From NCBI GenBank assembly GCA_030651375.1, contig JAUSFM010000003.1:184718-248717 (forward strand): a stretch of 64,000 nt of DNA, read 5' to 3'. Shown piece after piece: positions 7,166 through 26,017 of this stretch; position 1 is the first letter of the stretch, and every line of letters begins with the position of its first letter. The translations under genes were made by a program, and so were the position numbers. The notes below the pieces were generated by a model that was not told where the DNA came from, did not search any database, and was given only the letters and a program-made list of their open reading frames with translations. The stretch is from Candidatus Woesearchaeota archaeon. Lineage in GTDB: Archaea; Nanobdellota; Nanobdellia; Woesearchaeales; UBA12501.

Positions 7166-7192
7166 TTGAAACCCGCTGCGCGGAGCGGAACA

Positions 7193-7384
7193 ATGGCAAA
7201 AAATGCATTGCCCCAGTTTGAGGGTTATACAGTCGATCTACGACTTAGACAGTTTAGGAAAATAACAAAAACAAAGATGGAATTTGTTGATTTTTATTCA
7301 GTTAAAGGGGGAAAAATGGTCTCGAGATATATCAACTTTTTGAATGATCAGTTGGAGAGGATTGCCCAATATCAAAAAAATTAA
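7193..7384 (+). CDS. Small hypothetical protein downstream of repeat module
   Basis: ORF 7166..7384; start MAKNALP at 7193 about 30 nt after TATA-like element. Confidence 0.3.
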   Translation: MAKNALPQFEGYTVDLRLRQFRKITKTKMEFVDFYSVKGGKMVSRYINFLNDQLERIAQYQKN

Positions 7385-7404
7385 GAGGAGCTATTAAAGG
7401 GAAT

Positions 7405-9327: not shown

Positions 9328-9328
9328 A

Positions 9329-9691
9329 TTAATACTCCGTATATTTTTTGTTTAAACCTTTCACTGTCTCAACTGGATATTTTTGCTCATTTTTCTTCAT
9401 TTTGTGATCAAACTCAGTAGTAAGATCTATATCATATCGTTGTGCCAATCTGAGCAAAAAGTAGAATACATCAGCCATTTCTTCGGTTATTTCCTTTCGT
9501 TTGTTTAAATCATGAAACATACTTTCAACTTCTTTTTCGGATTTAAACCTAAAATGTTCCAGTAGTTCACTGGCTTCAGTTATGATTCCTATTGCTAAGT
9601 CCTTAGCATTATGATATTGATCCCAATCTCGTTCATCACAAAACGTTTTAACTTTTTCTTTTAATTCATTAATATTGGTTTTGTGGTCCAT
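9329..9691 (-). CDS. MazG-like nucleoside triphosphate pyrophosphohydrolase (small all-alpha NTP-PPase)
   Basis: 120 aa from MDHKTNINEL; EASELLEHF and EEMADVFYFLLRLA match MazG/YpjD-type motifs; stop TAA 1 nt before DUF2075 ATG (TAATATG). Confidence 0.65.
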   Translation of the reverse strand: MDHKTNINELKEKVKTFCDERDWDQYHNAKDLAIGIITEASELLEHFRFKSEKEVESMFHDLNKRKEITEEMADVFYFLLRLAQRYDIDLTTEFDHKMKKNEQKYPVETVKGLNKKYTEY

Positions 9692-9871
9692 AAGAGTAGT
9701 TAGATTAAAAGAGAGGTTTATAAAACTTGTCACGCTTCCAAAGCCTAGATTATCTGCTGATTTATAAAGACTAGATTGACAAAATGACAAGATATAAATA
9801 CCACCGAGAGTAGTATAATAAATTAAGAATGAATGTAGAAGAGGTGAAATACTAAATAAGATTCTTTTAGA

Positions 9872-10150
9872 GTGATAGATAAAAGTGATAGCGTGTCTCC
9901 TATGATGAAAACCGAATTTATGCAAGAAACAAAGAGATTTCAAGAGTTTGAAGATAAGGCTCTGAGCCAAGTTATGGAAGTTTCTAAAAGATTATTGGAA
10001 ACGTTTAGGTTTAGAAGGTTTTATGACTTATCTGTTTCTGAAGAGATTAATAAAAAGACACTTGAGGGAATAAGAGAATTCAGAAATAAGAATAAAATAT
10101 CACTCGATGATAGAGAGAGCTATCAAAGATATTTAAAATTAGTAGATTAG
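9872..10150 (+). CDS. Small hypothetical protein
   Basis: 92-aa ORF divergent from MazG-like gene. Confidence 0.3.
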   Translation: MIDKSDSVSPMMKTEFMQETKRFQEFEDKALSQVMEVSKRLLETFRFRRFYDLSVSEEINKKTLEGIREFRNKNKISLDDRESYQRYLKLVD

Positions 10151-10719
10151 AATTTTCTCTTCATCATCCATTGTTTAATTTCGGTTTCTTTTATTCTATC
10201 AGATTTAGCAAGTGGAATGATATTTAAACCTAACTCTTCACACGTCTTTAAAAATCCTGTGTCTCCTGAGTGAACGATGGTTATACCTTCAGCAAGAAAG
10301 CCTGCGATTATTATCACATCGTTCGGACCGATATGAAAACGCTGATTTTGTGTTTTTTCAACTACACGCTGATTATAAGTTTGCACATGTTGTTCTAGAA
10401 GATTATCAGATTCACGAGTGATTTTTTCAAGAAGAAAGGTGTTGCATAGGTTTTGCCAAGCTTCTTTTGCTTCTATTTTTGTAAAATGATACTGGTTAAT
10501 CAGGACACCAATGACCTCAGAAACTGAGATTTCATGATAATAAAATAAGTTTGGAGGAAAAGCAAAATGCCCTTTCTTAAACTGGTTAAAATCTCCTGCA
10601 AAAGCAACAATAATGTTTATAAGGGTACTTGAGTCTAAACCATTTTTTACAATACCCTTGATTGAAAGCTGGCCTGAAAGGACATAATAGGTACTTTCTG
10701 TTTTTTGATTTGTTGTCAT
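10147..10719 (-). CDS. Hypothetical protein (possible nuclease-like)
   Basis: Start MTTNQK; C-terminal DVIIIAGFLAEGITIVHSGDTGF acidic cluster; no firm family assignment. Confidence 0.35.
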   Translation of the reverse strand: MTTNQKTESTYYVLSGQLSIKGIVKNGLDSSTLINIIVAFAGDFNQFKKGHFAFPPNLFYYHEISVSEVIGVLINQYHFTKIEAKEAWQNLCNTFLLEKITRESDNLLEQHVQTYNQRVVEKTQNQRFHIGPNDVIIIAGFLAEGITIVHSGDTGFLKTCEELGLNIIPLAKSDRIKETEIKQWMMKRKF

Positions 10720-10941
10720 AAATTGCCCCTTTAGTATTAAATCAGAAGCAGCCAAGGGATTGCCCACTCCCCTGGACCACCCCTTTATGATACAAAAAAT
10801 GATTAAACTATTTAAAGATTGTGTTTAAAACTCACCTTTTCCATACTGTTCCACACACTTTTATCTTTCCTATTAATCACAATATTTATCCATCCCCCTG
10901 TCCACCACACTGCACACGTTCGCCGCAATCGCCCACACACC

Positions 10942-11151
10942 TCACTTCCCCCACCCTCTTACCTTTGTCCCACAGCCATACATCTTTCTTTCATGCCAGC
11001 AGTCGCAGCAGAGCCGTGCGATTGATTCGTTGACCGCATTACGCGCCTTTGCCCAGGTTAGACCGTGTTTTAACTGAATTCTCTGTTTGAGTAAGAATAA
11101 TTCATCATCAACGTCGGCGAGAATTTGTTGTTTTTGCGTTAGTTTAACCAT
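10942..11151 (-). CDS. Small hypothetical protein, possibly ribbon-helix-helix/antitoxin-like
   Basis: 69 aa; MVKLTQKQQILADVDDELFLLKQRIQLKHGLTWAKARNAV pattern. Confidence 0.25.
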   Translation of the reverse strand: MVKLTQKQQILADVDDELFLLKQRIQLKHGLTWAKARNAVNESIARLCCDCWHERKMYGCGTKVRGWGK

Positions 11152-11258
11152 GCTACCACCTCAAGCTTCGCTCATTGATTATGTGATGGTTATATATCTT
11201 ACGCATATCACGATATTATGCCGACAACGCCACAACAGTTATAAACCTCATAGGTTTT

Positions 11259-11795
11259 ATGATCGAAATGGGGCTTGACATCTTCGAAGATATTGTTGCA
11301 ACTTGGTTACAAACTAACGGATATTTTATGATGAACAATATTAGGTATGGTCATAACCAAGAGATTGATGTTTTAGCAACAAAATTGGGAAAGAATGGAA
11401 TTATTCACATTGAAGTTTCCTGTTCATCAAATCCTAGTGATATTGTGGGAACAAAGAATCACGAAAAAATTGGTTATGAACAAGCAGCAATAAATTTTGC
11501 AGAAAAGAAATTCTTTAATAAAGAAGTCAAGGGAAAAATTCTTGCTTTGTCTGGTCAGGAACCGAAAGAGAGATGGTTTATCCATGCAATAATGGACGAA
11601 CCGAAGCAGTTGGATATACTACGCGAAAAAGGTATTAAACCGATCAACATTAAAGATGTGATAAAAGATATTCAATCATCAGATCTGAGGGATTCTTCAG
11701 GAAATAAGAGGATAAAACAGCTTTTTGATATAATCAAAAAGATTAATGAGCAACAGAGCATCTCCACCCCATCACATCAACATCCACCTTTATGA
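11259..11795 (+). CDS. Hypothetical protein with restriction-endonuclease-like (Hjc-like) core
   Basis: NQEIDVLA...GIIHIEVS resembles PD-(D/E)xK core strand pattern. Confidence 0.35.
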   Translation: MIEMGLDIFEDIVATWLQTNGYFMMNNIRYGHNQEIDVLATKLGKNGIIHIEVSCSSNPSDIVGTKNHEKIGYEQAAINFAEKKFFNKEVKGKILALSGQEPKERWFIHAIMDEPKQLDILREKGIKPINIKDVIKDIQSSDLRDSSGNKRIKQLFDIIKKINEQQSISTPSHQHPPL

Positions 11796-11798
11796 ACA

Positions 11799-12404
11799 TC
11801 ACGCATAGTCCTTTTGATTGAGTATTTTATTCTTGAAATGGGTCAGCGCGCATTTTTTGGAGCAGAAATAAACTTGGCGACCCTTCCAAGTTCTTTCGTT
11901 ACACCTAAACATATAAAAGAGATATAGTTTTTGTGCGTCAGCTTTGCAATTTGCGCATGATATACTTTTTTTCTTTTTTAGGCATACGCCTTCAAAGCAA
12001 GATTGAAGCAATGCAGGAGTAAGTTTTTTCTTTTCTTTGGTGGTGAGGCGAACACCGAGAAACGTGCCGATGCGAGTATTGATATCGGGGTACTTTGAGG
12101 CGTTTAGTTTCTTGATTTGAGGAGAGGAAATCTTGCGAATACAATCGAAAGAGCAGACGCGTTCACCTGTACTGATAGCTGATGAATTGAGAAGATTTTG
12201 TTTATAAAAAGAGAATTCGAATTGTGCACCCTTTTTTCCACAGACAGTACAGGGGTTTGATACGCCATTCTTGGCGAAGGTGATGACTTTATCCCAGTTA
12301 ATATTCAGTTCGTCAAATTCTGTTAAGTTATTGATAGGAGAAGAATCAAAGGGATAAAAAGTAGTATACAAAAAATTTTCAATTTTGTTTTTTAATATAC
12401 TCAT
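11799..12404 (-). CDS. Cys-rich (zinc-finger-like) hypothetical protein
   Basis: Start MSILK; two CxxC...C clusters (CTVCGKKG, CANCKADA...CSKKC). Confidence 0.4.
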   Translation of the reverse strand: MSILKNKIENFLYTTFYPFDSSPINNLTEFDELNINWDKVITFAKNGVSNPCTVCGKKGAQFEFSFYKQNLLNSSAISTGERVCSFDCIRKISSPQIKKLNASKYPDINTRIGTFLGVRLTTKEKKKLTPALLQSCFEGVCLKKKKSISCANCKADAQKLYLFYMFRCNERTWKGRQVYFCSKKCALTHFKNKILNQKDYA

Positions 12405-12728
12405 GCTGCACACCCCCATAAAGTTCCGACAGGGGAAGAGTATAAAAAAGTTTCTTGTCACTGAAAAGGAGGTTGATTAACAGTGATTTAAATAAGGAGA
12501 TAATCCCGTCACAACCTTTAAATTACCCATCCTGTCTTGTCCAGTGGTTGGATGTGCCATCACGCAACCATTCCACACCTCCAGAAAAATATTCAGGGCA
12601 CATTAGGAGCATTGTGATTAGATGATGACCGGGTGTGCAGTGCCACATGCTATGAGGTGGCATGCAGAAAGAGGTATGGGTGAACTACCGCTGGCTGAAG
12701 CCCACGAGTTCAGGCGCTGCCTGCGCCC

Positions 12729-13250
12729 TTAAAGTAATTTCTCCATCTCGAGCATGAATTCTTTCGCTCTGTTCAGGGAAGTGGTTGCCTTGCCATGGAG
12801 TTCAGCTTCTTTCATTTCGTATTGGACATCGCTTCTCTTCTTCCTTTCAAAGTCAAAAGTCTCAATCAAAGCGTCTGTTTTTATGCCGGCGAGCGCCTCC
12901 TGTTGGGCTTTTTCATATTCTTCAAGCAGTGATTTTTTCAGTTTGTTTCTGACAAAGACAATGAGGGCATCGGCAGTTATTTTGTGGGATATCTTTTCCC
13001 CTATTTTGTATCCGAGTTTGTAGAGGACAGCATTGGCACTATAGTACATCGCATAGTAGGACGTAACAATAATCCACAAATCAGATTTCTTGTTTTGAAG
13101 CAGGAAACCAGCAATCTCAAGGCTATCCTTGGCATTTCGGCGCAAGATGGTATAAATAGGTTCCTGAAAGGATTGCTTTTTTAGGAGCCCGTCTTCAATG
13201 TATGCACGGACATTTTTTTCAGCTTCCTTAATTCTTGGTTCATCGAGCAT
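12729..13250 (-). CDS. HEPN-like domain protein, partner of upstream nucleotidyltransferase
   Basis: 173 aa all-alpha; 11-nt overlap with MNT gene; canonical Rx4-6H not clearly visible, call from context. Confidence 0.4.
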   Translation of the reverse strand: MLDEPRIKEAEKNVRAYIEDGLLKKQSFQEPIYTILRRNAKDSLEIAGFLLQNKKSDLWIIVTSYYAMYYSANAVLYKLGYKIGEKISHKITADALIVFVRNKLKKSLLEEYEKAQQEALAGIKTDALIETFDFERKKRSDVQYEMKEAELHGKATTSLNRAKEFMLEMEKLL

Positions 13251-13809
13251 TCGCGATCATCCGGTAATAGTCTTCTATTCCGAACAGAATAATGTTGTTT
13301 TTTATTGCTTCTGAAACAACGGTAAATTCTGTAGACTTGAGCATTGTCTGGAAATCAGCATACGTAATGGACGTGAGATGAATAGGTAAAGGAAGGAGAT
13401 TAGCTTGTTCTTCTATCTGTTCTGGCCGGTCGGTGATGAGAAGCAAGTCAATATCAGAATGGGTTGTTTGCTTTTTTTTCGCATGAGAGCCAAAGAGGAG
13501 TAAAATAAACTGTTGGTTTATTCCTCTGAAGCGGGAGTACAGTACGTTAAAGTTCTTATTGCGCGTTAATTCCTGCAGCCGGTGGTGTTCTACCGTAAAA
13601 ACAGAAGCATTGAAGTTTCGGTTAAAAGAACAGATGATGGTGTTTCCGTGCCGCACGGCGCTGATAACCCCTTCGCCCTGCAGTTTTTGCACGGCACCAT
13701 ACGCTGATTTGTAGTTTATTTTTCGTTTGAGAGCAATCTGCCGGATACTCAAATTGAGCTCTTGATGCTCTATAAGCAGGCGGAGGATGTTCAGTTTTTC
13801 ATTATCCAT
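13240..13809 (-). CDS. Nucleotidyltransferase (MNT) domain protein with N-terminal wHTH
   Basis: LLFGSHAKKKQTTHSDIDLLLI matches minimal nucleotidyltransferase GS-x9-DxD motif; N-terminal HTH-like region. Confidence 0.6.
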   Translation of the reverse strand: MDNEKLNILRLLIEHQELNLSIRQIALKRKINYKSAYGAVQKLQGEGVISAVRHGNTIICSFNRNFNASVFTVEHHRLQELTRNKNFNVLYSRFRGINQQFILLLFGSHAKKKQTTHSDIDLLLITDRPEQIEEQANLLPLPIHLTSITYADFQTMLKSTEFTVVSEAIKNNIILFGIEDYYRMIANAR

Positions 13810-13984
13810 TGTTAACCATACTAGTATGGTTTGTAACCATATATTTAAATGTTTCGGTACTGAAACAGTTAAAAGTGGTGAAATGCATGGCCAAAAAGGA
13901 GGAAATGAGTCGGCTACAGATTGTAGTCAACTGAAAACATATTTAGGAGTGGCAAATAATTCATCCCCGCCCAACTCGTTCTCT

Positions 13985-14398
13985 TCACGCTTCAGCCGCA
14001 CATTCAGTATACGAATCAGCAAGGCCGTAGCGGTCGCTGACGGCGGTTGTTATTTGCTGGGTGAAGTTTTCTGTATGGGGAAGCAAGGATATGAGCTTAT
14101 TCCTCGCTTTTCCAACGAATTTGAGCTGGATCGTGAGCGCATTCTTTTCAAGGCGCGCTTTGAAATCGCAATGGATGATATTTTTGAGGGTGTATTTGAC
14201 GACGCCGAAAATGCGTGAGGCATCAAATATCCGTACGCCGGTGACAAAGCCGAGGTCGTCAATATCCGCGACAAAGTTGTGGAATTCAACGGATTGCTTA
14301 TAGTTCCGATTTTTTATTTTGAAGGTGAGAATATCATGTGCATAATCGTATATAATCTCTCCTTCATCTTTCGCGTCAAGGTGTTTGTTGGTTTTCAT
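13985..14398 (-). CDS. DUF2283-family small protein
   Basis: IIYDYAHDILTFKI...DIDDLGFVTGVRIFDAS resembles DUF2283 N- and C-terminal signatures. Confidence 0.5.
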   Translation of the reverse strand: MKTNKHLDAKDEGEIIYDYAHDILTFKIKNRNYKQSVEFHNFVADIDDLGFVTGVRIFDASRIFGVVKYTLKNIIHCDFKARLEKNALTIQLKFVGKARNKLISLLPHTENFTQQITTAVSDRYGLADSYTECAAEA

Positions 14399-14857: not shown

Positions 14858-16315
14858 TTAGTCCTTTCCCACCATCTCCCGTATCTTCTCCACGATCCAT
14901 ATCATGCCTTCGGTATCGCGAGCGCAGTACGTTTCAAGATATTTGCGGGTTTTCCGTTTTTCCTCGTCGCTCATCCCCTTGAATGTCATGATGAAGAACG
15001 CGGCGCTCGCATCGTCGCCTTTGCCAATTTCGAAATCATCATATCCCTTGCCGATGAGTACCGGCATAACTGCCTTGATGGATGCACTTCCTTTCTGGTT
15101 GGGATGGTAGTAATGAAAGCCGCTAAATGGTGCGTAGAGGTCAACAATGCGGCTGATGACTGACCCAACCCATGTGGAATATTCAGGGAACGCCTCGGCG
15201 AGTTTGTTCAGCACTCCTTTTTCAAAGGATTGATTGTACACAACAATGCTTCCGGCGCTGCCCAGCGCTTGTTTCAGTTTTTTCAGAAGCAGTGGCCGCG
15301 GATCCTCTCGGCCATCAGCAAGGAATGAGTGATGGCTTGTTTTTCCGTTGGCCACGACGTGCACAGAAAACTGGAAGGGTATCGCCTGGTACGGCGACGT
15401 GCCATCGTACAACGGCACAGCAGTGCTGAATGTCTCAAAGTCAAAGTAATACAGTGGTTCTTTTAGTTGGGCAAGGAATGATTTTAATTGTTTCGTGTCT
15501 ATGTGGGGTTTATTCGATTGGATGCAGTCAATTTGAATCTTCTGCTTGGCGTTGAGCTTGGTGCCGGCCGGCACATCCATGAGCGATAGAATGTTGGCTT
15601 TGAAAAGCTCGTGCGACGCCTTGCCGCCTCGGTATAAATTAAACACGTTGTGTTCCGGCAGGAAATTCCAGCACTCTTCACACACGCAGTCGTGGCCATT
15701 TTCACAGCCGTTGCCGATGGTTGTTTCCGGCGGCGTTGGACTGTTGATGATTGCAAGAAGCGCCTCCACTTTGCCGGGCACACTCGGTAAACAAAGATCG
15801 ACCTGCGCGGTGATTTCTTCCTGCACAAGCAGTTCCGCAGGATTGATGGCACCGTGTTTCACATAGTCTTTGTTGACGTGCATCAGAAAGCATTTTCGTA
15901 TGGCAATGCCCGCTTGGGTGTAACAATATTTCTGAAAGGAAACATCCTCAATGTGCTCATCCTTTACCGAGCTGGAACTTTTCACTTCAACAATGTCCCA
16001 CTGGTTGTTTTCCACGGGAACAAGAATGTCAGCGCGCGCGTAGAGATTTCCCGCAACAAGACCGGCTTCAAACAGCGGCTTTCTCTGTTTCAGCGCTTCT
16101 GCGGTTTCCTTGATGTTGCGAGCGAATTCTTCAGAAAGCGAAATCCCGCTGGGAAACAATGTTTTAGCGAGATGCCCCACTTCATGCCCTTGGTCAAAAA
16201 TAAGCTGGGTGGCGGCGGTGTGCTTCGGAAGCCGCTCGGGCTGGTGAAACATCATCCACAGATGGCGCGGACAGGCAAGACCAGTTGCATATTTTGATTT
16301 GGTGAGGAAGCGCAT
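14858..16315 (-). CDS. DUF2779-like protein: N-terminal Cas4/RecB-like PD-(D/E)xK nuclease fused to C-terminal DEDD-type 3'-5' exonuclease
   Basis: ADILVPVENNQWDIVEVKSS (D...ExK); LYYFDFETFS (DxE exonuclease I motif); 485 aa. Confidence 0.6.
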   Translation of the reverse strand: MRFLTKSKYATGLACPRHLWMMFHQPERLPKHTAATQLIFDQGHEVGHLAKTLFPSGISLSEEFARNIKETAEALKQRKPLFEAGLVAGNLYARADILVPVENNQWDIVEVKSSSSVKDEHIEDVSFQKYCYTQAGIAIRKCFLMHVNKDYVKHGAINPAELLVQEEITAQVDLCLPSVPGKVEALLAIINSPTPPETTIGNGCENGHDCVCEECWNFLPEHNVFNLYRGGKASHELFKANILSLMDVPAGTKLNAKQKIQIDCIQSNKPHIDTKQLKSFLAQLKEPLYYFDFETFSTAVPLYDGTSPYQAIPFQFSVHVVANGKTSHHSFLADGREDPRPLLLKKLKQALGSAGSIVVYNQSFEKGVLNKLAEAFPEYSTWVGSVISRIVDLYAPFSGFHYYHPNQKGSASIKAVMPVLIGKGYDDFEIGKGDDASAAFFIMTFKGMSDEEKRKTRKYLETYCARDTEGMIWIVEKIREMVGKD

Positions 16316-16358: not shown

Positions 16359-19300
16359 CTACGTCGTGCCTGCGCTGCTCGTCACTTCCCCATAGATCTC
16401 ATCCACGCGTTGGGCAACCAAGTTTCCTAATTCAGTGTAGATGCCGCGGGTAAACGCGTTGTCACATTCAGGAACGTGGTTGCATTGGGCGGCGTATGCT
16501 GAAACTTTTGCAGCAACCTCTGGTTTATGGGCTTGGACGCAGTCAACGGTGATGCCGTTGAGGCAGATAAGTTCCATATCGTTTGCAAATCGCTGGGCAA
16601 GTTGAGTACCATCAGCGGCAGTCGGGAGCGTCGTAACCGCCGGTGGCGCAAGTTTTTTCTCAAGCCGGAGATCGAGGAGCACATCAGAAATCGTGCCGAG
16701 AAGCGTGTCAACTTGAGCGTCATACGCGTCAGTGCACGAAGTGATAGCGGTACAGAGCCCGCGGTATTGGTCGTCTTGCGCAAGGACAAAGTCTTTATTG
16801 GTGTTGAGGCAGTCTTCGGTTATGCCGCCCGGACAAATTCTGCTGACACGCTCGACAAAGCTGCCGGCGTATTGCGCGCCGGCTTCTTCTGGTGATGCGA
16901 CAGCAGCGACAGTTGGTGAGGCAGCAGCATACTGTTCAACCGCCTGCAGCACTGTTGCCTTGAATGTGCACCAGTCAAACAGTGGCCCGGGATCTTCATG
17001 GCCACCATACACGCCGTTGGGTTGGCCAGCGGTAAATCCTTCGCAGGAATAGCCAGAGGTGCCGTCGACATACTGCGGCCTGCCGATGGTGCTGTGGAAA
17101 TAGATGTGGTCAATGCTGATGCCGTAGCGTACCATGATTTCGGCAACGGTTTTTGCCAGTGTTTTCATTTGCGCATCGGGGAATGGTTCCCAGTATCTGG
17201 TCCCGCCAGGATAGCTCCACGCTTTTCCGTGCACCATGTTGAGCTGGTTGCGCACATCAATACATCCAGAACAGGGACTGTTGCCGGCATAATTCGCGAG
17301 GTCGATGCCGATGGCTTGACTGTTAATTCCGGGCTTTGCGCAGGCAGGATTATTGGCGCTGCAGCCTGCATGATACGTGATAATATCTTCTTGTTCGATT
17401 TGGATCATCGATCCATCGCGGTCAATGATGAAGTGCGTACCTACTTTTTCTCCATCGCTGTTAACTCCTTTGAAAAAGATATTTTTGTACGTGTCATACG
17501 CTGACGAACTGCCTGCAGTGATGTGAATAACGATGCTGCTGATTTTGCTACTTGAACGTATGGGCCGATCTACCGTGTCAGCGCGCGCATGGAACGCACA
17601 ATCATCGTCAGGTCCGCAGGCAGTTGCCGGATTTAAGTCGACAGAACCATAGCTTCCGAGTGTCACGATCTGCGGCGTGAATGGCCCTGAAATAACCGGC
17701 CCAATAGTTCCGGGGGTTGGTGTTGATGCGCCGGTGCCTGGAGCAGATGGCCCCGGAGAAACTGGTGGAACACTTGCCGGCCGCTGCGCACAGAGCGTCG
17801 CTGCCTGCGCTGGATTTTTCACAAAGGAGTCTTTGTCAGACACACAGGCATACTGCGCGCTATTCGGCGCAGGGCAGGGCACGCAGAAATTTCCAAATCC
17901 GCATTCCATATCGGTTGCACCGCCGAGCTTGCCGTTGCAGTCGCAAATATTTTGGTTGTTTGACGGGTCAACATACAATCCGTTGTTTTTGTCGGTGGTG
18001 GTGCACGCCTCGTAGCCGATGCACGAACCGGATGCAGAGCAGTAGTTGAGCCCTTGCGCAATGCCGCAGCGGCTTGAGGTAGAGGTACCCACACAATTAC
18101 ATTCTTGGTTCACGAATGCGTTGGATGTGCATGCAGGCAATTCGCCGGTGGCAGTCACTTTACTGCATGCAACTGGAATGTCAATCGCGTCTGCGCCGGT
18201 GAATTCGAGCGCCTTGCCGCCGAACCGCGCGACCGCGTCGCCGGGAATGCAGGTGTCCGGTCCGGGAATGTCGTTTTCAAATCGGGTCTTGCACGGGCGA
18301 AGCTCAAGAGATAATTTCCAGTGCACGGGATTTTGTGCTGTGATGTCGTCGCACTGGGTTGCCGCTGCGCGCTGTTGTGCGAGGAAGGCGATGCCGTCAG
18401 CGTAGAGTTTTCCTGGAAGAACCGAACCGTACTCTGGCTGGATGCGAAGCCCATGGTACGAAATAGTGCCGAGCGCGCTGTCGAAGCGGTAGATATTATT
18501 TTTCAGCAGGGCGGTTGTCGACGGTGAAAGTCCGGACGCGGAAAGTTCTGCGTCAGTGCAGGGGATAGCACCCGGCACAATTTCAAACTGGTAATTTCTG
18601 CTTCCTTCAAGGAGTTTTGCAAGGTCATCGCTCAACGATGCGTGCTGCACACTGTAGCAGAACGCGTCTCTGCCTGCGGCATCTTTGGTCCGGAACATCA
18701 ACAGGCCAACCGCGAGATTTTCGCGTGAAGGGTAACTAACATCAATCGACGGAAGACTGCGCAGGGGAAGTTTATTTCCGCCAGCTTCTGCAAAGTCTGG
18801 ATTGGTGTACGCAACAGTGCGCGCGTATCCTGCGGCGCCGCCGTACATACCGCGAGTGATCATATCTTCAGTCAAGACGACGCTGGGAATGGTGAACCGG
18901 GAAACGCCATCTTCAACAATCGCGCGCACCGCCATGGAGCGCGCGGCAGATGACGCAGCAGACGAACTGGTGGGTGCTGAAATCGTGCTGCCTGCGTACC
19001 GTTCGAGTGGAATGACATTACCGTTCTGGTCGCGCAGTTGGTACATCAGGAAGTACGGCACCTGCTGGCCGGCAAGTGAAAGTGCCTGTGCAACGTCGGG
19101 ACGGATAGTGCCTGCACGGTTGTTCGGGCTGTATTTTTCAAGCTCGACATCGACGTCAATCGGCTCGTTAACCATGAACACCGATTTGACCGGACGGGGC
19201 CGTTTCAGGAACGCTGCGCGCCCGAGTTGGCCGGCTGCGATTTCGCATTGGTATCCAGAAAGTTTGAACTGGCAGGAAAGCGGCGGCTCATCGCCAATCT

Positions 19301-22300
19301 GCTGAATTTCGATTATTTTTTCTTCAGTCTGGAAATTTCCCTGATTGTTCCGCCACTGCCAGTATAAGCGAACACGGTCAAAGCGATACGGAAGTTCTGC
19401 CGGAACATATGCGTCCATGTCGCCGTATTCGCCGGCTGCAAGCACGCCGGTGCCCATGAAGTTGGTGATGGGATAGCGTTTCTCGCCAATCTCTGCGCAA
19501 TCGCATTTGTTGTTGGCAAAGCCGTAGATTTGTTTGCAGTTTGTCGGGCTTGCAGTGCAGATAAGTTCTGCGCCGTAGGTTATTTCAGAGCCGGCGACAA
19601 GTCCGCCGGCGAGATGGTAAATAAATCGCGCGTTGCCGGTCACGGGATTGCTCGTCATGAATCGCCGCGTTTGTTTTGGATACAAAAAGCCCTCGCTCGC
19701 AACCGGCACGCTGCCGATGCCCGTCAAGGCACCTTCGATGTCAAGGTCGAAATCGCCGGTGAATGCGTAGAAGCACGCCGAGTGAATCAGGCTGCGTTCA
19801 TTAAGGATACTGTACAAATTTGATTTTCCATACCGGTCGGAAATCGCCGTGTGCATGTGCTCGCCGGCAGAGGAAACTGCTTTGAAAAAGCCGCTGATGC
19901 CCTGAAGCCGACCGCCGCCACCGCCGCCGGAGCCCGCACCGTAGCGCTGGGCAAAACATTTGACTGCTTCAATCAGGAAATCGCACAGTGTTTCTGAAAA
20001 CGCGCGCCGGCACATGCCGGTACTTCCTTCGCCTGTCAACAAAATGGATTGGAAGCACTGCCGGAACTGGACAAAGACGCGCTGGATAAGTGCAATATAG
20101 GTGTTGATGGCGGGCAGGCACATGCACCGGATTGAATTGACAATGCTGGACGTCGGGTCAACAACATAGTCGCGGTTCACCCGCGGCACGAGTCCGTATT
20201 TTTCCGCTTCTGCGCGTGTCAGGATTTTTTGGGGGAATTCAGGAACAAATTGTTCAAGCCCGCGGTCGTAGCCGACCACTTCGCCGGTTGCCGGATCTTT
20301 TCGCTCTTTCCGGTCAGCGTAGAATGTGCCGAGTTCCCACTGGCCATCTGCAATAAGCCGGAACCAGCGGTCGCGGATGGTGACTCTTTTTTTGTTGAGT
20401 GTTGGCTGGCTGTTGATTGCTTCAGTCACTTCAATGGTGCCATCGCGGGCAGGAAGTGTGCCGCCGTAGCGCACGCTGCCGACTAAGGGACGGACTTCTT
20501 CTTGGCAAATCGTTGAAGCGGATTCAACCGCCTGTCCGATGGGCCCGCCGCAGCTTTGTGCAGCGCGGGAAGATTTGGTTGCAGTGTCATAGATACATTC
20601 AGATTGCCGAAGCTCGTTGGTAAACCAGCACGCGCTGTCCCATTGATTGATGTATTCCTGCGCGCATTGTTTTTCCGGACTTGCGCCGGGCACTGTTGGA
20701 ATTCCAGAAAACGGAGTGAGCATTGACGACGATGAAGAGGAAAGCAATTCATCAGCAGCGTCGTACACTACCCCTTCGTTCATGCCGGGATTGCCGCACT
20801 GCGCTTCTTTTGCGTCGGCATTGGTGCTGCCGAGATCATAGTGCGCAGGATTAGTGGTGCCATCAGACTGAAGCGCGCGTGTCTTTGCCATGCTTGCCTG
20901 CGTGATGTGCACGGCGAGTGTGGGCGCTGCGGGACAGTACACGCGGTCGCATATCCATTTCATGTAGCGTTCGTAGTCCTTGCGTGACTCGCGCGACTGT
21001 ATGCATTGCTGTTTTTCAGGGCTGTCAGCTGCGTCGGCGTAGACGCCGGTGCAATCCAGTTTTTCGATGACAAGCTTGTAGTAGTACGCGGCAAAGCTGC
21101 CGAGGCAGGTTACAAATGTGCCGATCAAGACAAATTTCAGGTACTGCAAAATCTGGTTGAGCGTTTTGATTGCATCATCAAAAAAATGGATGGAATCTTT
21201 GAGCAGCCATGTGGGGAGCCAGCGCTCGTCAAGCTCAAGGTCGAGTGTCGTGACGACGTCAGTGCAGTGGAGTTGGGTGCGCGTAATTTTTCCAGCTCGG
21301 CCACCATACACGCCTGATGTTGAGGAAGGAGAGAGTGGTTGTTGGTAGTTTTGATATGAAGGACGGCCAGACACGCCGGAGATATACTGCGTGCCCGGTG
21401 GCGCCTGCGCTCCTGATGTTGCGGGTATGCCAGTGCCCATGCCGCTGGCGTCTTCGTATTCAAACAGCACTTCCATCTGCAATGGAATTTTTATGAGCAA
21501 ATCTTTTTTCGCGCTGATGTCACTGAGATTTTTTTGGAGGTAGGGAAGCTGGTTGAAGTTCACGACAATGCCGCCGACGGTGTAGTCATCACTCCAGGTT
21601 ACCTGCACGGGCTGACGCACGAGTGTTTCCGGATCAAATGCATAATCACGGCGGGCTTCAGTGCTCTGATGTAGTACGCGGAAACGAGGCGGCGACAAAA
21701 TAGTTGCACGGTCTGCGGGGCCGCGCCATTTCAGCTTGACGTTGAAGCCGAGCTGGGCAATGCCGTTGCGGAGATGCGCGGGGATGACGGTCGATGGAGT
21801 AATTTTTGATTGCTCAACTTCCCAGAAACCGCCGCTGCCGCACTTCGCAAACACAACCGACACCGGACCAGAAGTGGAACTTCTTCCAAGATCGTCCACA
21901 ACAAAAATCTGCAGCCTATTTTCAAACGTGCTGCCAACATCGTATTGCCTGCCGAAGGTGTTTGCCGACGAATCAAGCGGTTGCTGGGGCAGGTACTGCG
22001 TCAGGTTGGTCTGCACAAATTGAGTGAGGAGCACATCAATTGAAAATCTGCCGTCGGGTCCAGCAACAGCAGTATATTCTTTTTGCGGCGCCGCGCGCAC
22101 TGAAAGGCTTTTTACCAGATCGAGCAAGCTTGTGCTCCACGCGGAATTGGGAGTCACTTCATCATTGACGGTCACAAACACAACCGCGCCGGGCGTTGCA
22201 TTGCCGCGCACGGTGACTTTTTGTGTGTAGCTCGGGTTGAGTTCATTGAGGTTGTGCGAAAAGAGCTGGGGAGCAGGGCCGAGAATTTGAATTGTTTTTG

Positions 22301-23150
22301 ATTCCTGTTTTGTGTTGCCTGCTTCGTCTGCAAACACGAAATGAACGTCTGTTTTTTTGCCGATGTTCTGCGCAACGCTTTCAGAAACGGGAACACGAAT
22401 ATCAAATGCTCCGGCAGGCAGCTGCTGTTCGCTGACCGCGCCGCTGACGGTGATGGTCGCGACGATAGTTTCTGATGTTGTTCCTTTCAGCGCCAGCACA
22501 CCTTCAACAATGCTGATGTGCTGATCAAGTGAAACAACCGGCGCCACGGTATCAACCGTGACGTCGAATTCCTTGATGGTTTTCTGCACTGAGGTTTGGT
22601 TTGTTGCTTCATCAACAATTTCTTCAGCGCGGCCTTCGGCGATAACGACGATATGCGAAAGCCCTTCGTTGAGCGTGAAGGTGAGCGCGAATGCTCCTGC
22701 GCTGTCGGCAATGGTGATTGTGTGATACGATGTCGCGTTAGTAATCGGGAGTGCCGGATTGAGGTACGTTTTTACACGAGTGTGTGAATTGGTGGTGCCC
22801 TGCACCGTGAGCGTGCGCTTGTTTGTTTTTTTCGGCAGCTCAAGATTTAGCAGCACGCCGTATGCGCCGCGCTCGGATGAAAAGTTTCCGCCAGCGCCTT
22901 CTGCATCACTCGCGCCGTAGGGTGATGTTGGCAATGTGTCGGAGTATGCAGAAGTAGTTGAGGAGGAAGATGATGAATCAGATACATTTGAAGGGGTAGA
23001 AGAGGAGGATGGAGGCGTGTGCTCGTAGGTTGGCTGCGCGTGCACCACGGGTATGAGAATGACTAGGTACATGAAAAATGCCGCAATAATCTGTACGGTG
23101 TGCGCTGATTTCAGGCTCAAGTTCATGCTCATCCTCTTTTGTGTAGCCAT
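16359..23150 (-). CDS. Giant secreted surface protein (2263 aa) with Ig-like N-terminal region, Cys-rich repeats and a C-proximal N-acetylmuramoyl-L-alanine amidase (Amidase_2/PGRP) domain
   Basis: Signal peptide IIAAFFMYLVILIPVVHAQP; amidase signatures IVIHITAG, THFIIDRDGSMIQ, YHAG, NSQAIGIDL, HIYFHS, EDPGPLFDW at about 16970..17560; duplicated ICPGGITEDC / ICLNGITVDC modules at C-terminus. Confidence 0.8.
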   Translation of the reverse strand: MATQKRMSMNLSLKSAHTVQIIAAFFMYLVILIPVVHAQPTYEHTPPSSSSTPSNVSDSSSSSSTTSAYSDTLPTSPYGASDAEGAGGNFSSERGAYGVLLNLELPKKTNKRTLTVQGTTNSHTRVKTYLNPALPITNATSYHTITIADSAGAFALTFTLNEGLSHIVVIAEGRAEEIVDEATNQTSVQKTIKEFDVTVDTVAPVVSLDQHISIVEGVLALKGTTSETIVATITVSGAVSEQQLPAGAFDIRVPVSESVAQNIGKKTDVHFVFADEAGNTKQESKTIQILGPAPQLFSHNLNELNPSYTQKVTVRGNATPGAVVFVTVNDEVTPNSAWSTSLLDLVKSLSVRAAPQKEYTAVAGPDGRFSIDVLLTQFVQTNLTQYLPQQPLDSSANTFGRQYDVGSTFENRLQIFVVDDLGRSSTSGPVSVVFAKCGSGGFWEVEQSKITPSTVIPAHLRNGIAQLGFNVKLKWRGPADRATILSPPRFRVLHQSTEARRDYAFDPETLVRQPVQVTWSDDYTVGGIVVNFNQLPYLQKNLSDISAKKDLLIKIPLQMEVLFEYEDASGMGTGIPATSGAQAPPGTQYISGVSGRPSYQNYQQPLSPSSTSGVYGGRAGKITRTQLHCTDVVTTLDLELDERWLPTWLLKDSIHFFDDAIKTLNQILQYLKFVLIGTFVTCLGSFAAYYYKLVIEKLDCTGVYADAADSPEKQQCIQSRESRKDYERYMKWICDRVYCPAAPTLAVHITQASMAKTRALQSDGTTNPAHYDLGSTNADAKEAQCGNPGMNEGVVYDAADELLSSSSSSMLTPFSGIPTVPGASPEKQCAQEYINQWDSACWFTNELRQSECIYDTATKSSRAAQSCGGPIGQAVESASTICQEEVRPLVGSVRYGGTLPARDGTIEVTEAINSQPTLNKKRVTIRDRWFRLIADGQWELGTFYADRKERKDPATGEVVGYDRGLEQFVPEFPQKILTRAEAEKYGLVPRVNRDYVVDPTSSIVNSIRCMCLPAINTYIALIQRVFVQFRQCFQSILLTGEGSTGMCRRAFSETLCDFLIEAVKCFAQRYGAGSGGGGGGRLQGISGFFKAVSSAGEHMHTAISDRYGKSNLYSILNERSLIHSACFYAFTGDFDLDIEGALTGIGSVPVASEGFLYPKQTRRFMTSNPVTGNARFIYHLAGGLVAGSEITYGAELICTASPTNCKQIYGFANNKCDCAEIGEKRYPITNFMGTGVLAAGEYGDMDAYVPAELPYRFDRVRLYWQWRNNQGNFQTEEKIIEIQQIGDEPPLSCQFKLSGYQCEIAAGQLGRAAFLKRPRPVKSVFMVNEPIDVDVELEKYSPNNRAGTIRPDVAQALSLAGQQVPYFLMYQLRDQNGNVIPLERYAGSTISAPTSSSAASSAARSMAVRAIVEDGVSRFTIPSVVLTEDMITRGMYGGAAGYARTVAYTNPDFAEAGGNKLPLRSLPSIDVSYPSRENLAVGLLMFRTKDAAGRDAFCYSVQHASLSDDLAKLLEGSRNYQFEIVPGAIPCTDAELSASGLSPSTTALLKNNIYRFDSALGTISYHGLRIQPEYGSVLPGKLYADGIAFLAQQRAAATQCDDITAQNPVHWKLSLELRPCKTRFENDIPGPDTCIPGDAVARFGGKALEFTGADAIDIPVACSKVTATGELPACTSNAFVNQECNCVGTSTSSRCGIAQGLNYCSASGSCIGYEACTTTDKNNGLYVDPSNNQNICDCNGKLGGATDMECGFGNFCVPCPAPNSAQYACVSDKDSFVKNPAQAATLCAQRPASVPPVSPGPSAPGTGASTPTPGTIGPVISGPFTPQIVTLGSYGSVDLNPATACGPDDDCAFHARADTVDRPIRSSSKISSIVIHITAGSSSAYDTYKNIFFKGVNSDGEKVGTHFIIDRDGSMIQIEQEDIITYHAGCSANNPACAKPGINSQAIGIDLANYAGNSPCSGCIDVRNQLNMVHGKAWSYPGGTRYWEPFPDAQMKTLAKTVAEIMVRYGISIDHIYFHSTIGRPQYVDGTSGYSCEGFTAGQPNGVYGGHEDPGPLFDWCTFKATVLQAVEQYAAASPTVAAVASPEEAGAQYAGSFVERVSRICPGGITEDCLNTNKDFVLAQDDQYRGLCTAITSCTDAYDAQVDTLLGTISDVLLDLRLEKKLAPPAVTTLPTAADGTQLAQRFANDMELICLNGITVDCVQAHKPEVAAKVSAYAAQCNHVPECDNAFTRGIYTELGNLVAQRVDEIYGEVTSSAGTT

Positions 23151-23180: not shown

Positions 23181-25142
23181 TTATGTGGTAAAGTGAGGAA
23201 CGGCCTTGCTGGTGTGCGCAGGAGCACTGGTGTCTTCAATCATTTTTGCCTGGTCAATCATTGTTGCGGGATGCGGAACATATTCAAGCACGGTAAATTT
23301 CACGCCAGTTCCGGATTTAATGTCGCGCTTGGATGGTGTCCAGTTCATCTCGAGCCGACCGATGAGTTCATCGTTCCCATCAAGAAGCGCCAGTGTTACG
23401 TCGTAGGTAATGCCATTCGCATTAATGATATCAACCGTGCCGAGACGGCCGACACCTGCATCGCCGAGGTCTTCGGCAAGTTTTTTCCCATCCAGCGGGA
23501 AGCGGGTGACGCTGCTGAATGCCGTGACATCTTTTGTGGTGATGAACACGAGCGCTGTTTCGCCGCTGTGCAGGTTTTCTTCTTTGTTGACTTGTTTCTG
23601 GGTGATGGTGCGCTTGACGACGGAAACCGGCAGGTGGCGCACCGGAAGAAGGTTAACGTCAACGCTCTGCTGGCTCCGGTCGAGCTGTTGTTTGGTGGTG
23701 ACATAATCTTCGTGCTCGACAACAACACTGCCCGGTGTGCAGAATTTCGGAAGGAGTGTAGACAACCGCGCAATACCGCCGACTTGGTCAGTTCTGCCGA
23801 GCGGACAGCTGAACAGGTTGACGCAATCAAACGACATATTGGCGCCGTTGATGTACACGCCGCTTTCGTTGTCAAACGTGTAGATAGCGAATGGTTCCTC
23901 TTCCCGGTCGTTGCATACTTCGCGGTCGCGCTCGAAGACCGTGAAAACGCTGGTGTCGAGGTTTCGCCGCTCGCCCTGGTTGTGGTCAATTATCACCGGC
24001 AGGGCAAAGCGGAACACGTAGCCCGCGCCGTTGAATGCTTTGTCGTCGATAATCGTGAACATGAGCGGGTACTGGAGTGTGTAGGTGAAATGGTAGGCGC
24101 TGACGCAGAGGTACTTCAGATATTCCCGCGCACCGCGGCCGAAGCTTGCCTGCATCACATCGCCGACGCTGGGCGTGACGCGGAAGTCAAACGGCCAGTC
24201 TTTGCGGAACGTGACGCCGACGGAAAGGTCTCGATAATTTTTCTCGGATACTTTCCATTCAAAATGGTTGCGCGCGTACGGGTCATCGCGGGGAATCGGC
24301 GGCGTTGCCGTGTTTGAAACACGGATGCGAGGCAGGTTGTGGTAGAGCCGATTCTGTAGGGTGTTGAGCACTGCTTTTCTGCTCCACTGCGGCTTGTCGC
24401 AGGTGAACAACACATCGGTAAACGGAATGTCATCCGGCGGCCTGCCACTGCCGAGTGTCATGAGTTCCATCGTGAGGTCTTCCAAAAACAGTTTTTGGTC
24501 TTCGCTGAAAAAAATATCTTTTGCCAGCTGCGCTATGGTGCCGAGTTTGACGTCGAGCCGGCTGCCGAACGTGGAGAATGTAAAGGTCTGGCCGCCTGTT
24601 GTTGCGGTGAGGGGATAGGTAAATTTCACTGCTACCGCGTCGGTGCCTATGCTGGTTTCAGCACTCATCGTCGCAGGAAATGAAAACGTGAAAGCGCGTG
24701 TAAATTCTTCTGCGTTGAGTCCTTTGAGGCAGGTTTCCATCTGGCGGGTGATAAACGTGGAGAGCTCGGTTTGCATGAAGCCAATAGTTGGCGCGCGGTT
24801 TTCGCCGGCGAAGTACCACAGCGGCATCTTCAGGTCGCCCGCGGGGGTGAGGGAGAGAAAACTTTTTGGGTTGATGGCGATGCGCGGCGGCACAGAAATA
24901 AAGCCGCCTTGGCTGCCGAGCAGCATGATGCCTTGCAGCGCCTGCTCGTCAAGGCATTGTTGGACAAACGTATGGATGCTTTTGAATTCAGTGGGAATAT
25001 TTTTTTCATCGCCCACGCCCGCGAGGAGTTTTTCACGCGAAAAATAAAGCATAAATGCAACGCTAATTAGGAGAAGTATGCCAAGGATTATAAAAAACGT
25101 CACCTGCCCCTTTTTTTGCAACATCAGAGTAAAATGAGGCAT
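23181..25142 (-). CDS. Large type IV pilin-like protein with class III (archaeal prepilin) signal peptide
   Basis: N-terminus MLQKKGQVTFFIILGILLLISVAFMLYF: KG|Q cleavage motif plus hydrophobic helix; paralogous to 35074..37392. Confidence 0.65.
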   Translation of the reverse strand: MPHFTLMLQKKGQVTFFIILGILLLISVAFMLYFSREKLLAGVGDEKNIPTEFKSIHTFVQQCLDEQALQGIMLLGSQGGFISVPPRIAINPKSFLSLTPAGDLKMPLWYFAGENRAPTIGFMQTELSTFITRQMETCLKGLNAEEFTRAFTFSFPATMSAETSIGTDAVAVKFTYPLTATTGGQTFTFSTFGSRLDVKLGTIAQLAKDIFFSEDQKLFLEDLTMELMTLGSGRPPDDIPFTDVLFTCDKPQWSRKAVLNTLQNRLYHNLPRIRVSNTATPPIPRDDPYARNHFEWKVSEKNYRDLSVGVTFRKDWPFDFRVTPSVGDVMQASFGRGAREYLKYLCVSAYHFTYTLQYPLMFTIIDDKAFNGAGYVFRFALPVIIDHNQGERRNLDTSVFTVFERDREVCNDREEEPFAIYTFDNESGVYINGANMSFDCVNLFSCPLGRTDQVGGIARLSTLLPKFCTPGSVVVEHEDYVTTKQQLDRSQQSVDVNLLPVRHLPVSVVKRTITQKQVNKEENLHSGETALVFITTKDVTAFSSVTRFPLDGKKLAEDLGDAGVGRLGTVDIINANGITYDVTLALLDGNDELIGRLEMNWTPSKRDIKSGTGVKFTVLEYVPHPATMIDQAKMIEDTSAPAHTSKAVPHFTT

Positions 25143-25186: not shown

Positions 25187-26017
25187 CTAAGAAAAAGAGA
25201 GGTACCACGCCCTGTTTATGGTGCTAAAAATAAACAAAAAGGCAAACGCGCCAAGTGTTTTCAGCGGCTCAGGAAGCAACGAAGCGAGTGAACCGACCAG
25301 CATCACGATGACAAAAAAAATGAGCAGAATGCCGAGCGGTTTTGCGAACCGTGAAAATTCGGTGACGCCGGTTTTCAGCGCATCCCACACCGCGCGAAAT
25401 TTCGGCGTGCGAAAAAAGTGGATGTAAAAAAGAGTGGTGAAGTGGCAGTACAGCATCACCAACGCCAGCACGAGTGCCTGAAGGAAAAAAATGTAGGTGT
25501 AGCCGGACGCGCGCGATGCAAGAGAAAACAGCGGCGCGTTGTAGAGGTTCGCAAGATACAGCAGCGCCGAAAACAGGGGAACCAAGGTCAGCGGCACCCA
25601 GACCAAGCTCACGGCGATTAGTTTCAGCCAGCAGTGTACTAGTGAATATTTTTCAGGCAGTTTTTGTTTGCCCTGTTTTTTCAGAAGAGACTTCCAGATA
25701 AGCGCACGGGTAAACGTCCATGCCAAAAAAAGGTACACGGCAAAGACTGCAAGGAGACCAATGATTTGATAGGTGCTATTTCTGACCGCAGTTGCATTGG
25801 CCAGCGCAGCAGCACTGTCGGCAGCGAGTGAGCCAAGATTGAGTGACTGCATCGTTGCCACGATGGATACCTGCAGTTTTTGGACGGCAAACCCACCCAG
25901 TGCCGCAAGGCCAAGAAAGAGCCACTCGGCAAAAAAAGCGTGCAGATGATGCACGTTGAGCTGGCGCATCATGCCAAAAAAATCTGTAAAGCCGACTGTT
26001 CGTTTCATGTGGTTCAA
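25187..26017 (-). CDS. Polytopic membrane protein, hypothetical
   Basis: 276 aa, about 7 hydrophobic segments. Confidence 0.55.
   Translation of the reverse strand: MNHMKRTVGFTDFFGMMRQLNVHHLHAFFAEWLFLGLAALGGFAVQKLQVSIVATMQSLNLGSLAADSAAALANATAVRNSTYQIIGLLAVFAVYLFLAWTFTRALIWKSLLKKQGKQKLPEKYSLVHCWLKLIAVSLVWVPLTLVPLFSALLYLANLYNAPLFSLASRASGYTYIFFLQALVLALVMLYCHFTTLFYIHFFRTPKFRAVWDALKTGVTEFSRFAKPLGILLIFFVIVMLVGSLASLLPEPLKTLGAFAFLFIFSTINRAWYLSFS

Follow-up and report, generated by a model that had tools for sequence, protein, structure and literature searches.

What would an archaeon, which has no murein of its own, do with a murein amidase at the end of a giant protein? The question is raised by a 64,000-nt stretch of DNA (hereafter the window) on contig JAUSFM010000003.1 of Candidatus Woesearchaeota archaeon (assembly GCA_030651375.1, positions 184,718 to 248,717 of the forward strand), in which one gene encodes a protein of 2263 aa, here called the giant, with an amidase domain near its C-terminus. 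The amidase annotation as such is already public: GenBank holds the identical protein, on a 262-kb contig, as ‘MAG: N-acetylmuramoyl-L-alanine amidase [Candidatus Woesearchaeota archaeon]’. We consider it probable that the giant is an exported surface protein of Woesearchaeota, consisting of a scaffold and a zinc N-acetylmuramoyl-L-alanine amidase that would act on the murein of a bacterial neighbour.

The initial annotation, made from the DNA letters, placed a peptidoglycan amidase of the Amidase_2 or peptidoglycan recognition protein (PGRP) type at positions 16970-17560. These coordinates fit the residues it named (1867-2062, corresponding to 16965..17552), and all peptides quoted there (IVIHITAG, THFIIDRDGSMIQIEQEDIITYHAG, NSQAIGIDL, FPDAQMKTLAKTVAEIMVRYGISIDHIYFHS, and EDPGPLFDW) occur in the translation. 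The Pfam search proposed as a check was run and bears the assignment out. Residues 1868-2022 match PF01510 (Amidase_2) over profile positions 3-122 of 131 with an E-value of 2e-18 and 67.4 bits, above the gathering cut-off of 26 bits; an isolated segment of 231 aa reaches 5e-20, and Amidase_2 is the sole family matched in a Pfam scan of the whole protein. Hits to PHROG families of amidases and endolysins fall in this stretch too, with E-values from 1e-13 to 1e-8. The match to the NCBIfam AmpD model is partial and below its cut-off (34.5 versus 143 bits) and the domain is thus not an AmpD equivalog. The closest solved structures by sequence are AmiD of Escherichia coli (4.6e-5), AmpDh2 of Pseudomonas aeruginosa, and AmpD. 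A low-confidence AlphaFold model of residues 1840-2263, based on an alignment of five sequences, is consistent with the mixed alpha/beta fold of T7 lysozyme, its top Foldseek matches being mostly Amidase_2 proteins (AmpDh2 and AmiD at E~3e-4). The amidase domain alone gave no match as query in a word-indexed search, and the domain alignment, when used to scan metagenomes, retrieved ordinary small amidases only (21-27% identity); neither search identified a close donor of the domain.

Alignment to T7 lysozyme (from NC_001604) and E. coli AmiD identifies H1876 and H2019 as presumed zinc ligands, opposite His17 and His122 of T7 lysozyme. The presumed third ligand is D2053, part of HEDPGPLFDW (a D-P-G-P-L-F-x-W motif), which HMMER alignments put at the position where AmiD and AmpDh2 bind zinc by an Asp. 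None of the three varies among the five full-length orthologues, even though identity between their amidase domains is only 48-74%; this is in line with the initial annotation, which had noted the ligand positions. H1906, Y1926-H1927-A1928 (YHAG motif), N1943, and G1948-I-D1950 are invariant as well. The Pfam match ends at residue 2022, short of the third ligand, because H2019 and D2053 are 33 residues apart compared to nine in AmiD. Another insertion, which is some 22 aa long and holds an invariant CxxC, comes after GIDLAN. What had been called a near-textbook match holds for the family and for the zinc triad, but not for the remainder: in short alignments, only about 24-36% of the residues are shared with AmiD and T7 lysozyme, two insertions are present, and the canonical Glu, Lys, and Tyr are replaced. 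Judged by its sequence, the domain is a divergent true Amidase_2 whose Asp ligand and DPGP motif place it nearest to the AmiD/AmpDh group, and it is apparently catalytically intact.

AmiD, AmpDh2, and AmpDh3 (periplasmic lipoproteins of Gram-negative bacteria) and AmpD have in common with the giant the family and fold, the His/His/Asp triad, and the position of the Asp in DPGP(L)F.W; a helical C-terminal module after the catalytic domain is a further likeness to the AmiD/AmpDh group. Identity to this group is only about 25%, however, and the giant differs by insertions of 22-24 aa with conserved Cys, by Asp and His/Arg in place of the general-base Glu and the Lys, and by C-terminal helical repeats that are not recognisable as PG_binding_1. 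The bacterial enzymes are 180-280 aa long and recycle the cell’s own wall, whereas the domain of the giant starts at residue ~1860 of an archaeal protein. T7 lysozyme, which along with phage Amidase_2 endolysins and animal PGRPs is another of the closest known counterparts, has Cys as third ligand and the catalytic residues Tyr46 and Lys128, where the giant has Asp, Thr, and His, respectively. In contrast to phage endolysins of the Amidase_2 family, the giant has no phage context, with no viral relatives and with housekeeping genes as neighbours.

The strongest argument for murein as the target comes from the relatives of the giant. Besides the giant, four full-length orthologues were found in a word-indexed database (52-74% identity). 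An exhaustive HMMER search with residues 620-1800 retrieved 522 cluster representatives at E<=1e-3 (259 at <=1e-30), and the family thus counts at least 522 protein clusters, a lower bound. Nearly all representatives are giants of 1500-3000 aa, and those with a named source that were checked all belong to Woesearchaeota or Nanoarchaeia. They have in common a region corresponding to residues ~991-1345 of the giant, a Cys-rich core of about 350 aa without known fold, which is 75-87% identical among the orthologues; the amidase domain evolves faster. A word-indexed search with the family alignment gave matches dominated by adhesins with fn3 and Ig domains and was uninformative.

In the C-terminal tails of core-sharing proteins we found nine hydrolase families by Pfam, eight of them above threshold. 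These tails contain Peptidase_M74 (a MepA-like endopeptidase; P0006, 2816 aa, 2e-19), SLT (P0012, 4e-11), SLT together with VanY (P0076, 6e-11 each), Peptidase_M23 (P0018, 2e-14), Peptidase_M15_4 (P0058, 1.5e-11), Glucosaminidase (P0057, 9e-9), or NlpC/P60 (P0100, 1e-15). The ninth family is a weak Peptidase_M15 match in P0025 (2e-4; 21.4 bits, under the 27-bit cut-off). P0039 carries a second Amidase_2 (1.5e-21) that is unrelated to that of the giant, as neither phmmer nor jackhmmer seeded with the giant’s domain recovered it. A trypsin-like peptidase is found in the tail of one relative. The catalytic motifs of the M23 (HxxxD/HxH), NlpC/P60 (Cys-His), and SLT (Glu-Ser) modules are present. 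No module type was seen in more than two of the 154 representatives that were examined.

The amidase of the giant thus appears to be one of at least ten cases in which a common scaffold was independently armed with a murein enzyme. Together these enzymes are predicted to attack the wall at glycosidic, amide, and peptide bonds. Different murein hydrolases at one position in sister lineages indicate that the wall-cutting tip can be exchanged as a module, the type of which plausibly suits the partner’s wall chemistry. The initial annotation had concluded from the amidase that bacterial cell walls are the target; this proposal gains weight from the seven other predicted murein-hydrolase families at the same C-terminal position in relatives, since such diversity supports murein better than a single domain does and disfavours a non-murein substrate. 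Some tails hold further candidate enzymes. We observed weak GDSL-lipase matches besides SLT in P0012 and, by eye, metallophosphatase-like and alpha/beta-hydrolase-like stretches in P0006 and an esterase-like stretch in P0058, which point to tips with several enzymes, whose targets might include lipids or teichoic acids besides murein.

The giant gene is the last of six co-directional genes separated by gaps of 14-44 nt, in the transcription order g772, g1204, g1784, g276, g653, giant (Table 1). Every large product of the cluster starts with a hydrophobic segment. The N-termini of g653 and g772 follow the pattern [KR]G/Q[VI]T.F.I.G..LL in all four contigs (the slash marks putative cleavage), which resembles a class III (prepilin) signal of archaea. 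This signal is read solely from the KG/Q-hydrophobic motif, and a pilin domain was not matched in either protein by Pfam even at E<=10; g653 and g772, at 650-770 aa, may be outsized pilin-like subunits of a surface apparatus. A FlaK/PibD-like prepilin peptidase is encoded 11 kb from the cluster. Beyond weak Ig-like matches, the cluster partners have no Pfam or PHROG assignment. Synteny is conserved in full in the P0004 and P0005 contigs and partly in a relative with 29% identity, with identities from 62% down to 29%. The cluster adjoins housekeeping genes (archaeal elongation factor 2, aEF-2) and does not differ from its surroundings in GC content. The DUF2779 gene directly downstream of the giant gene is also its neighbour in contig L001, and a similar-sized open reading frame (ORF) lies downstream in contig L002; it is probably not part of the surface system.

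Table 1. Features of the window. Positions count from the first letter of the window; residue r of the giant begins at 23150-3(r-1). A slash marks putative cleavage.
Feature	Position	Strand	Remarks
Giant gene	16359..23150	-	ORF of 2263 aa, same as GenBank entry
Sec-type signal peptide, aa 1-39	23034..23150	-	Hydrophobic core aa 18-36, Kyte-Doolittle hydropathy (KD) 2.44; putative cleavage VHA/QP, read from sequence
N-terminal beta-rich region, aa ~95-620	21291..22868	-	Nearly Cys-free
Conserved hydrophobic helix YLKFVLIGTFVTCLGSFAAYYYK, aa 670-692	21075..21143	-	From hydropathy and predicted helix
Family-defining Cys-rich core, aa 991-1345	19116..20180	-	Best-conserved part of the giant
Cys-rich EGF/knottin-like stretch and Pro-rich linker, aa ~1660-1835	17646..18173	-	From sequence inspection, Cys per 100 aa
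Amidase_2 / PGRP-fold domain, aa 1860-2065	16956..17573	-	Two lineage-specific insertions
Codon of H1876, putative zinc ligand 1	17523..17525	-	Aligned to His17 of T7 lysozyme
Codon of H2019, putative zinc ligand 2	17094..17096	-	Aligned to His122 of T7 lysozyme and to AmiD His
Codon of D2053, putative zinc ligand 3	16992..16994	-	DPGPLFDW motif as in AmpD, AmiD, AmpDh2
Two tandem helical repeats, aa ~2085-2163 and ~2178-2256	16383..16898	-	~75 aa and four Cys each
g653	23181..25142	-	Prepilin-like (class III-type) N-terminus MLQKKG/QVTFFIILGILLL; paralogue of g772
g276	25187..26017	-	Polytopic membrane protein, ~5-6 hydrophobic helices
g1784	26032..31386	-	Giant, N-terminal membrane anchor, 39 Cys
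g1204	31426..35040	-	Giant, Sec-type signal peptide (VFA/I)
g772	35074..37392	-	Prepilin-like N-terminus HSKRG/QVTIFIIIGVLLL; weak CarboxypepD_reg and Fn3_arc matches
DUF2779 / Cas4-like nuclease gene	14858..16315	-	Directly downstream of giant gene; weak Cas4/RecB-like similarity
EF-G-like gene (aEF-2)	38068..40314	-	TIGR00490, 910 bits
EF-G-like gene (aEF-2)	41094..43238	-	TIGR00490, 845 bits
FlaK/PibD-like prepilin peptidase	48180..49064	+
Sigma-70 RpoD-like gene	51063..53285	+	740 aa
AMP phosphorylase / archaeal thymidine-phosphorylase family	55726..57222	+	604 bits
Defence-type HNH endonuclease	6272..6961		Low-GC island
Schlafen-like helicase	7405..9327		Low-GC island; adjoins MazG-like gene 9329..9970
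HEPN / nucleotidyltransferase pair	12729..13809		Low-GC island; defence-type

Export of the giant is suggested by its Sec-type signal peptide, directly followed by a Ser/Thr-rich linker (by sequence inspection), by its 62 Cys and Pro-rich linkers, and by Ig/fn3-like domains in relatives. The N-terminal beta-rich region of the giant itself has no Pfam match; its counterpart in relatives contains Ig-like domains of the fn3, Big_13, and Glucodextran_B types. In the orthologue P0005, both Cys of the HAGC...PxC loop are lost jointly, which fits a disulfide and hence an extracellular location. According to the mechanism we propose, the giant would leave the cell via Sec, as its signal peptide implies, and would be displayed on or near the surface with the five other products of the cluster, as the conserved synteny implies. 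The amidase would then cut the stem peptides from the glycan strands in the murein of a neighbouring bacterium, and the local opening of the wall would either give access to the bacterial membrane, be it for attachment, episymbiosis, or predation, or leave the bacterium weakened or dead. Being an archaeon without murein, the producer would need no immunity protein.

The observations that weigh against this reading concern the active site, the model, the domain architecture, the topology, the rest of the family, and the partners proposed for Woesearchaeota. The invariant D1950 stands in place of the general-base Glu of AmpD and AmiD, the Lys at position -2 from the zinc-binding Asp is His2051 (Arg in P0005, the most distant orthologue), the position of Tyr46 of T7 lysozyme is taken by Thr1905, and both large insertions are close to the active site. 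The predicted local distance difference test (pLDDT) of the AlphaFold model is 35-70 in the amidase domain, i.e., of low confidence. No known Pfam wall-binding domain is present in the giant at E<=0.1. The two C-terminal repeats (33% identical to each other at E=4e-11, pointing to an internal duplication) are modelled as all-helical with a pLDDT of 75-90 and occur as a single copy in the most distant orthologue; a structure search with them gave no specific match, and they are a candidate targeting or binding module. As to the substitutions, Asp1950, His2051/Arg, and Thr1905 are chemically plausible substitutes for the canonical catalytic residues. Position -2 is always basic, His or Arg, and the second, unrelated Amidase_2 of P0039 likewise reads GIDLEE at the Glu position.

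These same non-standard residues at the Glu, Lys, and Tyr positions would fit a protein that binds murein in the manner of a non-catalytic PGRP and merely anchors the archaeon to a bacterium, and the scaffold family does look adhesin-like, with fn3 and Ig domains in relatives. We regard such pure adhesion or recognition as very unlikely. Non-catalytic PGRPs typically lack the third zinc ligand, while all three ligands of the giant are invariant over deep divergence, and the hydrolases of the sister lineages appear bona fide, with catalytic motifs kept in M23, NlpC/P60, and SLT.

Topology is the main uncertainty of the preferred reading. A helix at residues 670-692 is found at the same position throughout the family, with an F.TC..SW-like motif, and lies within a predicted helix of 54 residues. 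Its hydropathy (KD) is 1.61 in the giant and ranges from 0.75 (amphipathic) to 2.44 (transmembrane-like) in relatives, many of which score as transmembrane with values above 2.1. If the helix spans the membrane after cleavage of the signal peptide, the 1570 aa on its C-terminal side, and with them the amidase, would lie in the cytoplasm. Counting against a cytoplasmic C-terminal part are 61 of the 62 Cys, the Pro- and Ser/Thr-rich linkers, and the Ig- and EGF-like domains of relatives. The helix could be a membrane anchor, a buried or insertable helix, or a partner of the membrane protein g276. The extracellular location given in the initial annotation is thus backed by the signal peptide and the Cys-, Pro-, and Ser/Thr-rich composition but left in some doubt by this internal helix.

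In at least 90% of the representatives that were examined, no hydrolase can be recognised, most members having short tails (median 421 aa past the core) without a recognisable enzyme. Wall cutting would hence be accessory to the scaffold rather than its core function. A more far-reaching interpretation, which we put forward tentatively and hold to be rather doubtful, is that the cluster and the giant family form a contact-dependent apparatus for breaching bacterial envelopes, with the hydrolase as an exchangeable, host-matching warhead that needs no immunity protein, an archaeal analogue of polymorphic toxins. The core with its long hydrophobic helix would then insert in a membrane or bridge to the host. 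Polymorphic toxins (CdiA, Rhs, MafB; Zhang et al., 2012, PMC3482391) likewise combine a conserved exported scaffold with a lineage-variable C-terminal effector. Their effectors are intracellular toxins, however, compared to wall hydrolases in the archaeal family, and they come with immunity genes, which are neither seen nor expected here: no immunity gene is adjacent to the giant gene (the DUF2779 nuclease gene being the downstream neighbour) and no cassette-like fragments were seen. A pre-toxin demarcation motif or orphan cassettes were not identified in the giant family either. Should the warhead interpretation be true, whether an uncultured DPANN lineage carries an amidase, a glycosidase, or a DD- or LD-endopeptidase would tell the wall chemotype, and thereby the range of bacterial hosts, to be expected for it.

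A last group of observations bears on the partner. Woesearchaeota have been proposed to partner with methanogens, which have no murein, and two contigs related to ours are labelled as Methanosarcinales; both points weigh against the preferred reading. The contigs in question, L002 (CAYFJX010000015.1) and L003 (CAZXME010000008.1), are from GTDB genomes, are titled ‘uncultured Methanosarcinales archaeon’, and carry relatives of the giant cluster, all other named relatives being Woesearchaeota or Nanoarchaeia. These titles may be due to a mistaken label or mistaken binning, or else to the co-binning of DPANN contigs with a methanogen, which would hint at a physical association. The labels could also be taken to mean that the enzyme cleaves an amide bond in an archaeal envelope polymer, its own or that of a host (pseudomurein, methanochondroitin, or glycoprotein), and the active-site substitutions and insertions could then reflect an altered specificity. 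This we judge highly improbable. Pseudomurein lacks the MurNAc (N-acetylmuramic acid) lactyl-L-Ala bond and its known hydrolases have a different fold (PMC12352652), and eight independent families of murein-specific hydrolases on one scaffold would be hard to explain by any substrate other than murein. In the 64-kb window, which is a small part of the genome, no genes for murein or pseudomurein synthesis were seen.

The evidence for the Amidase_2 domain fits equally well with scavenging, in which the amidase would digest free murein or the walls of dead cells for peptides and amino sugars, without a living partner, and so feed an archaeon whose own biosynthetic capacity is very limited. The AMP phosphorylase in the window, typical of nucleotide salvage, points in the same direction, and neither a pore-forming toxin nor an obvious lytic partner was found in the cluster by Pfam and PHROG scans. 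DPANN archaea have moreover been described as relying on scavenged compounds (PMC8204110, PMC10936187). We nevertheless consider scavenging unlikely: an enzyme at the end of a 2263-aa scaffold amid anchored giants suggests contact-dependent rather than diffusible action, and diverse bond specificities, one per lineage, look like targeting, whereas complete digestion needs several per organism.

A further rival is an artefact of origin, with an ordinary bacterial autolysin or phage lysin on a bacterial, viral, or chimeric contig that was wrongly assigned to an archaeon. Such an artefact could be suspected from three features: the top PHROG matches are phage lysis families, the window has a low-GC island, and it encodes an RpoD-like sigma-70 factor with regions 1.2, 2, 3, and 4 and an extra C-terminal helix-turn-helix domain (461 bits against the RpoD model with a cut-off of 555; 355 bits against the MzaA anti-phage sigma model). 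On the same contig, within 15-40 kb, there are two EF-G-like genes that reach the aEF-2 equivalog TIGR00490 (cut-off 738 bits) and an AMP phosphorylase, typical of the nucleotide-salvage pathway described for DPANN archaea with form III Rubisco. The locus is reproduced by an independent assembly (L001), and all named members of the family are Woesearchaeota or Nanoarchaeia. In viral contigs we found no relative of the giant, the five cluster partners have no match in PHROGs, and the single weak match in phage genomes turned out to be the amiD gene of E. coli within a phage record; an origin from a phage or mobile element was ruled out on these grounds. A bacterial origin from the candidate phyla radiation (CPR), prompted by the sigma-70 gene, was ruled out by the aEF-2 equivalogs, the Woesearchaeota labels, and the precedent of sigma-70 genes in Woesearchaeota, for which mis-binning was excluded (Castelle et al., 2021, PMC8204110). 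The artefact explanation is effectively refuted, with a probability close to nil. The organism is a DPANN-group archaeon, as the initial annotation had it; the aEF-2 equivalogs, the AMP phosphorylase, and the FlaK-like prepilin peptidase agree with this, and the GenBank record names Candidatus Woesearchaeota.

Two further observations concern the surroundings. The aEF-2 paralogues are 0.8 kb apart, with an ORF of 250 aa on the opposite strand between them. The low-GC island extends over ~6000..14000 (33-36% GC compared to 46-55% elsewhere) and carries the defence-type genes listed in Table 1.

The interpretation as an attack on bacterial walls is supported by our analysis but is already published. 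Castelle et al. (2021, PMC8204110) described SLT-bearing giants, up to ~3000 aa long, from Woesearchaeota and Pacearchaeota and proposed that they bind and degrade bacterial walls, a study of oxygen-deficient zones (PMC10936187) echoes this proposal, and Vigneron et al. (2022, PMC9723730) proposed ‘vampiristic’ Woesearchaeota. The giants of fam00969 (Castelle et al., 2021, PMC8204110; see also Castelle, 2015; Vigneron, 2022) are of the same taxon and size class as the giant, with the same proposed location and role, and the giant (2263 aa, relatives mostly 1500-3000 aa) fits such a lineage-restricted giant of Woesearchaeota/Pacearchaeota. The description of fam00969 names only SLT, which cleaves a glycosidic bond, whereas our giant has an amidase, which frees the peptide from the glycan. 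Pfam finds no SLT in the giant, and the SLT-bearing P0012 and P0076 share its core. Through these relatives, set beside fam00969 by its description, both are probably one family.

The catalogue of archaeal peptidoglycan hydrolases of Strock et al. (2025, PMC12352652) includes Amidase_2 architectures (LysM+Amidase_2, PG_binding_1+Amidase_2), and for two haloarchaeal M23 enzymes the killing of a bacterium was shown experimentally. As in the giant, these are murein hydrolase domains of bacterial type in archaea, enriched in Nanoarchaeota and partly secreted via Sec, and PF01510 is on the catalytic list of that study. The catalogued enzymes are small to medium in size, however, and must contain a Pfam wall-binding domain; the giant has none and would not be selected by that definition. 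The giant further differs from these modular enzymes in that its enzyme sits at the end of a very large scaffold, the gene for which belongs to a cluster of several genes. The Archaeovorin giants of predatory Omnitrophota (West-Roberts et al., 2023, bioRxiv 10.1101/2023.11.21.568195) also belong to ultrasmall, host-dependent cells, are multi-domain and envelope-degrading, occasionally with SLT, and are read as tools of predation, but there a bacterium preys on archaea (the opposite direction) and the proteins are ten times larger and unrelated in sequence. In the literature searched, we found no description of an amidase-bearing giant, of the breadth of exchangeable hydrolases on one scaffold, or of a giant cluster with prepilin-like members.

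Most DPANN archaea are uncultured and, to our knowledge, no host is known for any Woesearchaeota. An amidase on a giant that is presumably exported supports bacterial partners, an inference that was drawn earlier from SLT domains. What is new is family-wide: one archaeal scaffold appears to have gained at least eight kinds of murein hydrolase independently. The murein-hydrolase modules would be a source of diverged antibacterial enzymes, and the core and the cluster partners are candidate parts of the machinery by which DPANN archaea contact their hosts. As the C-terminal modules are short, the question of bacterial targets becomes experimentally approachable.

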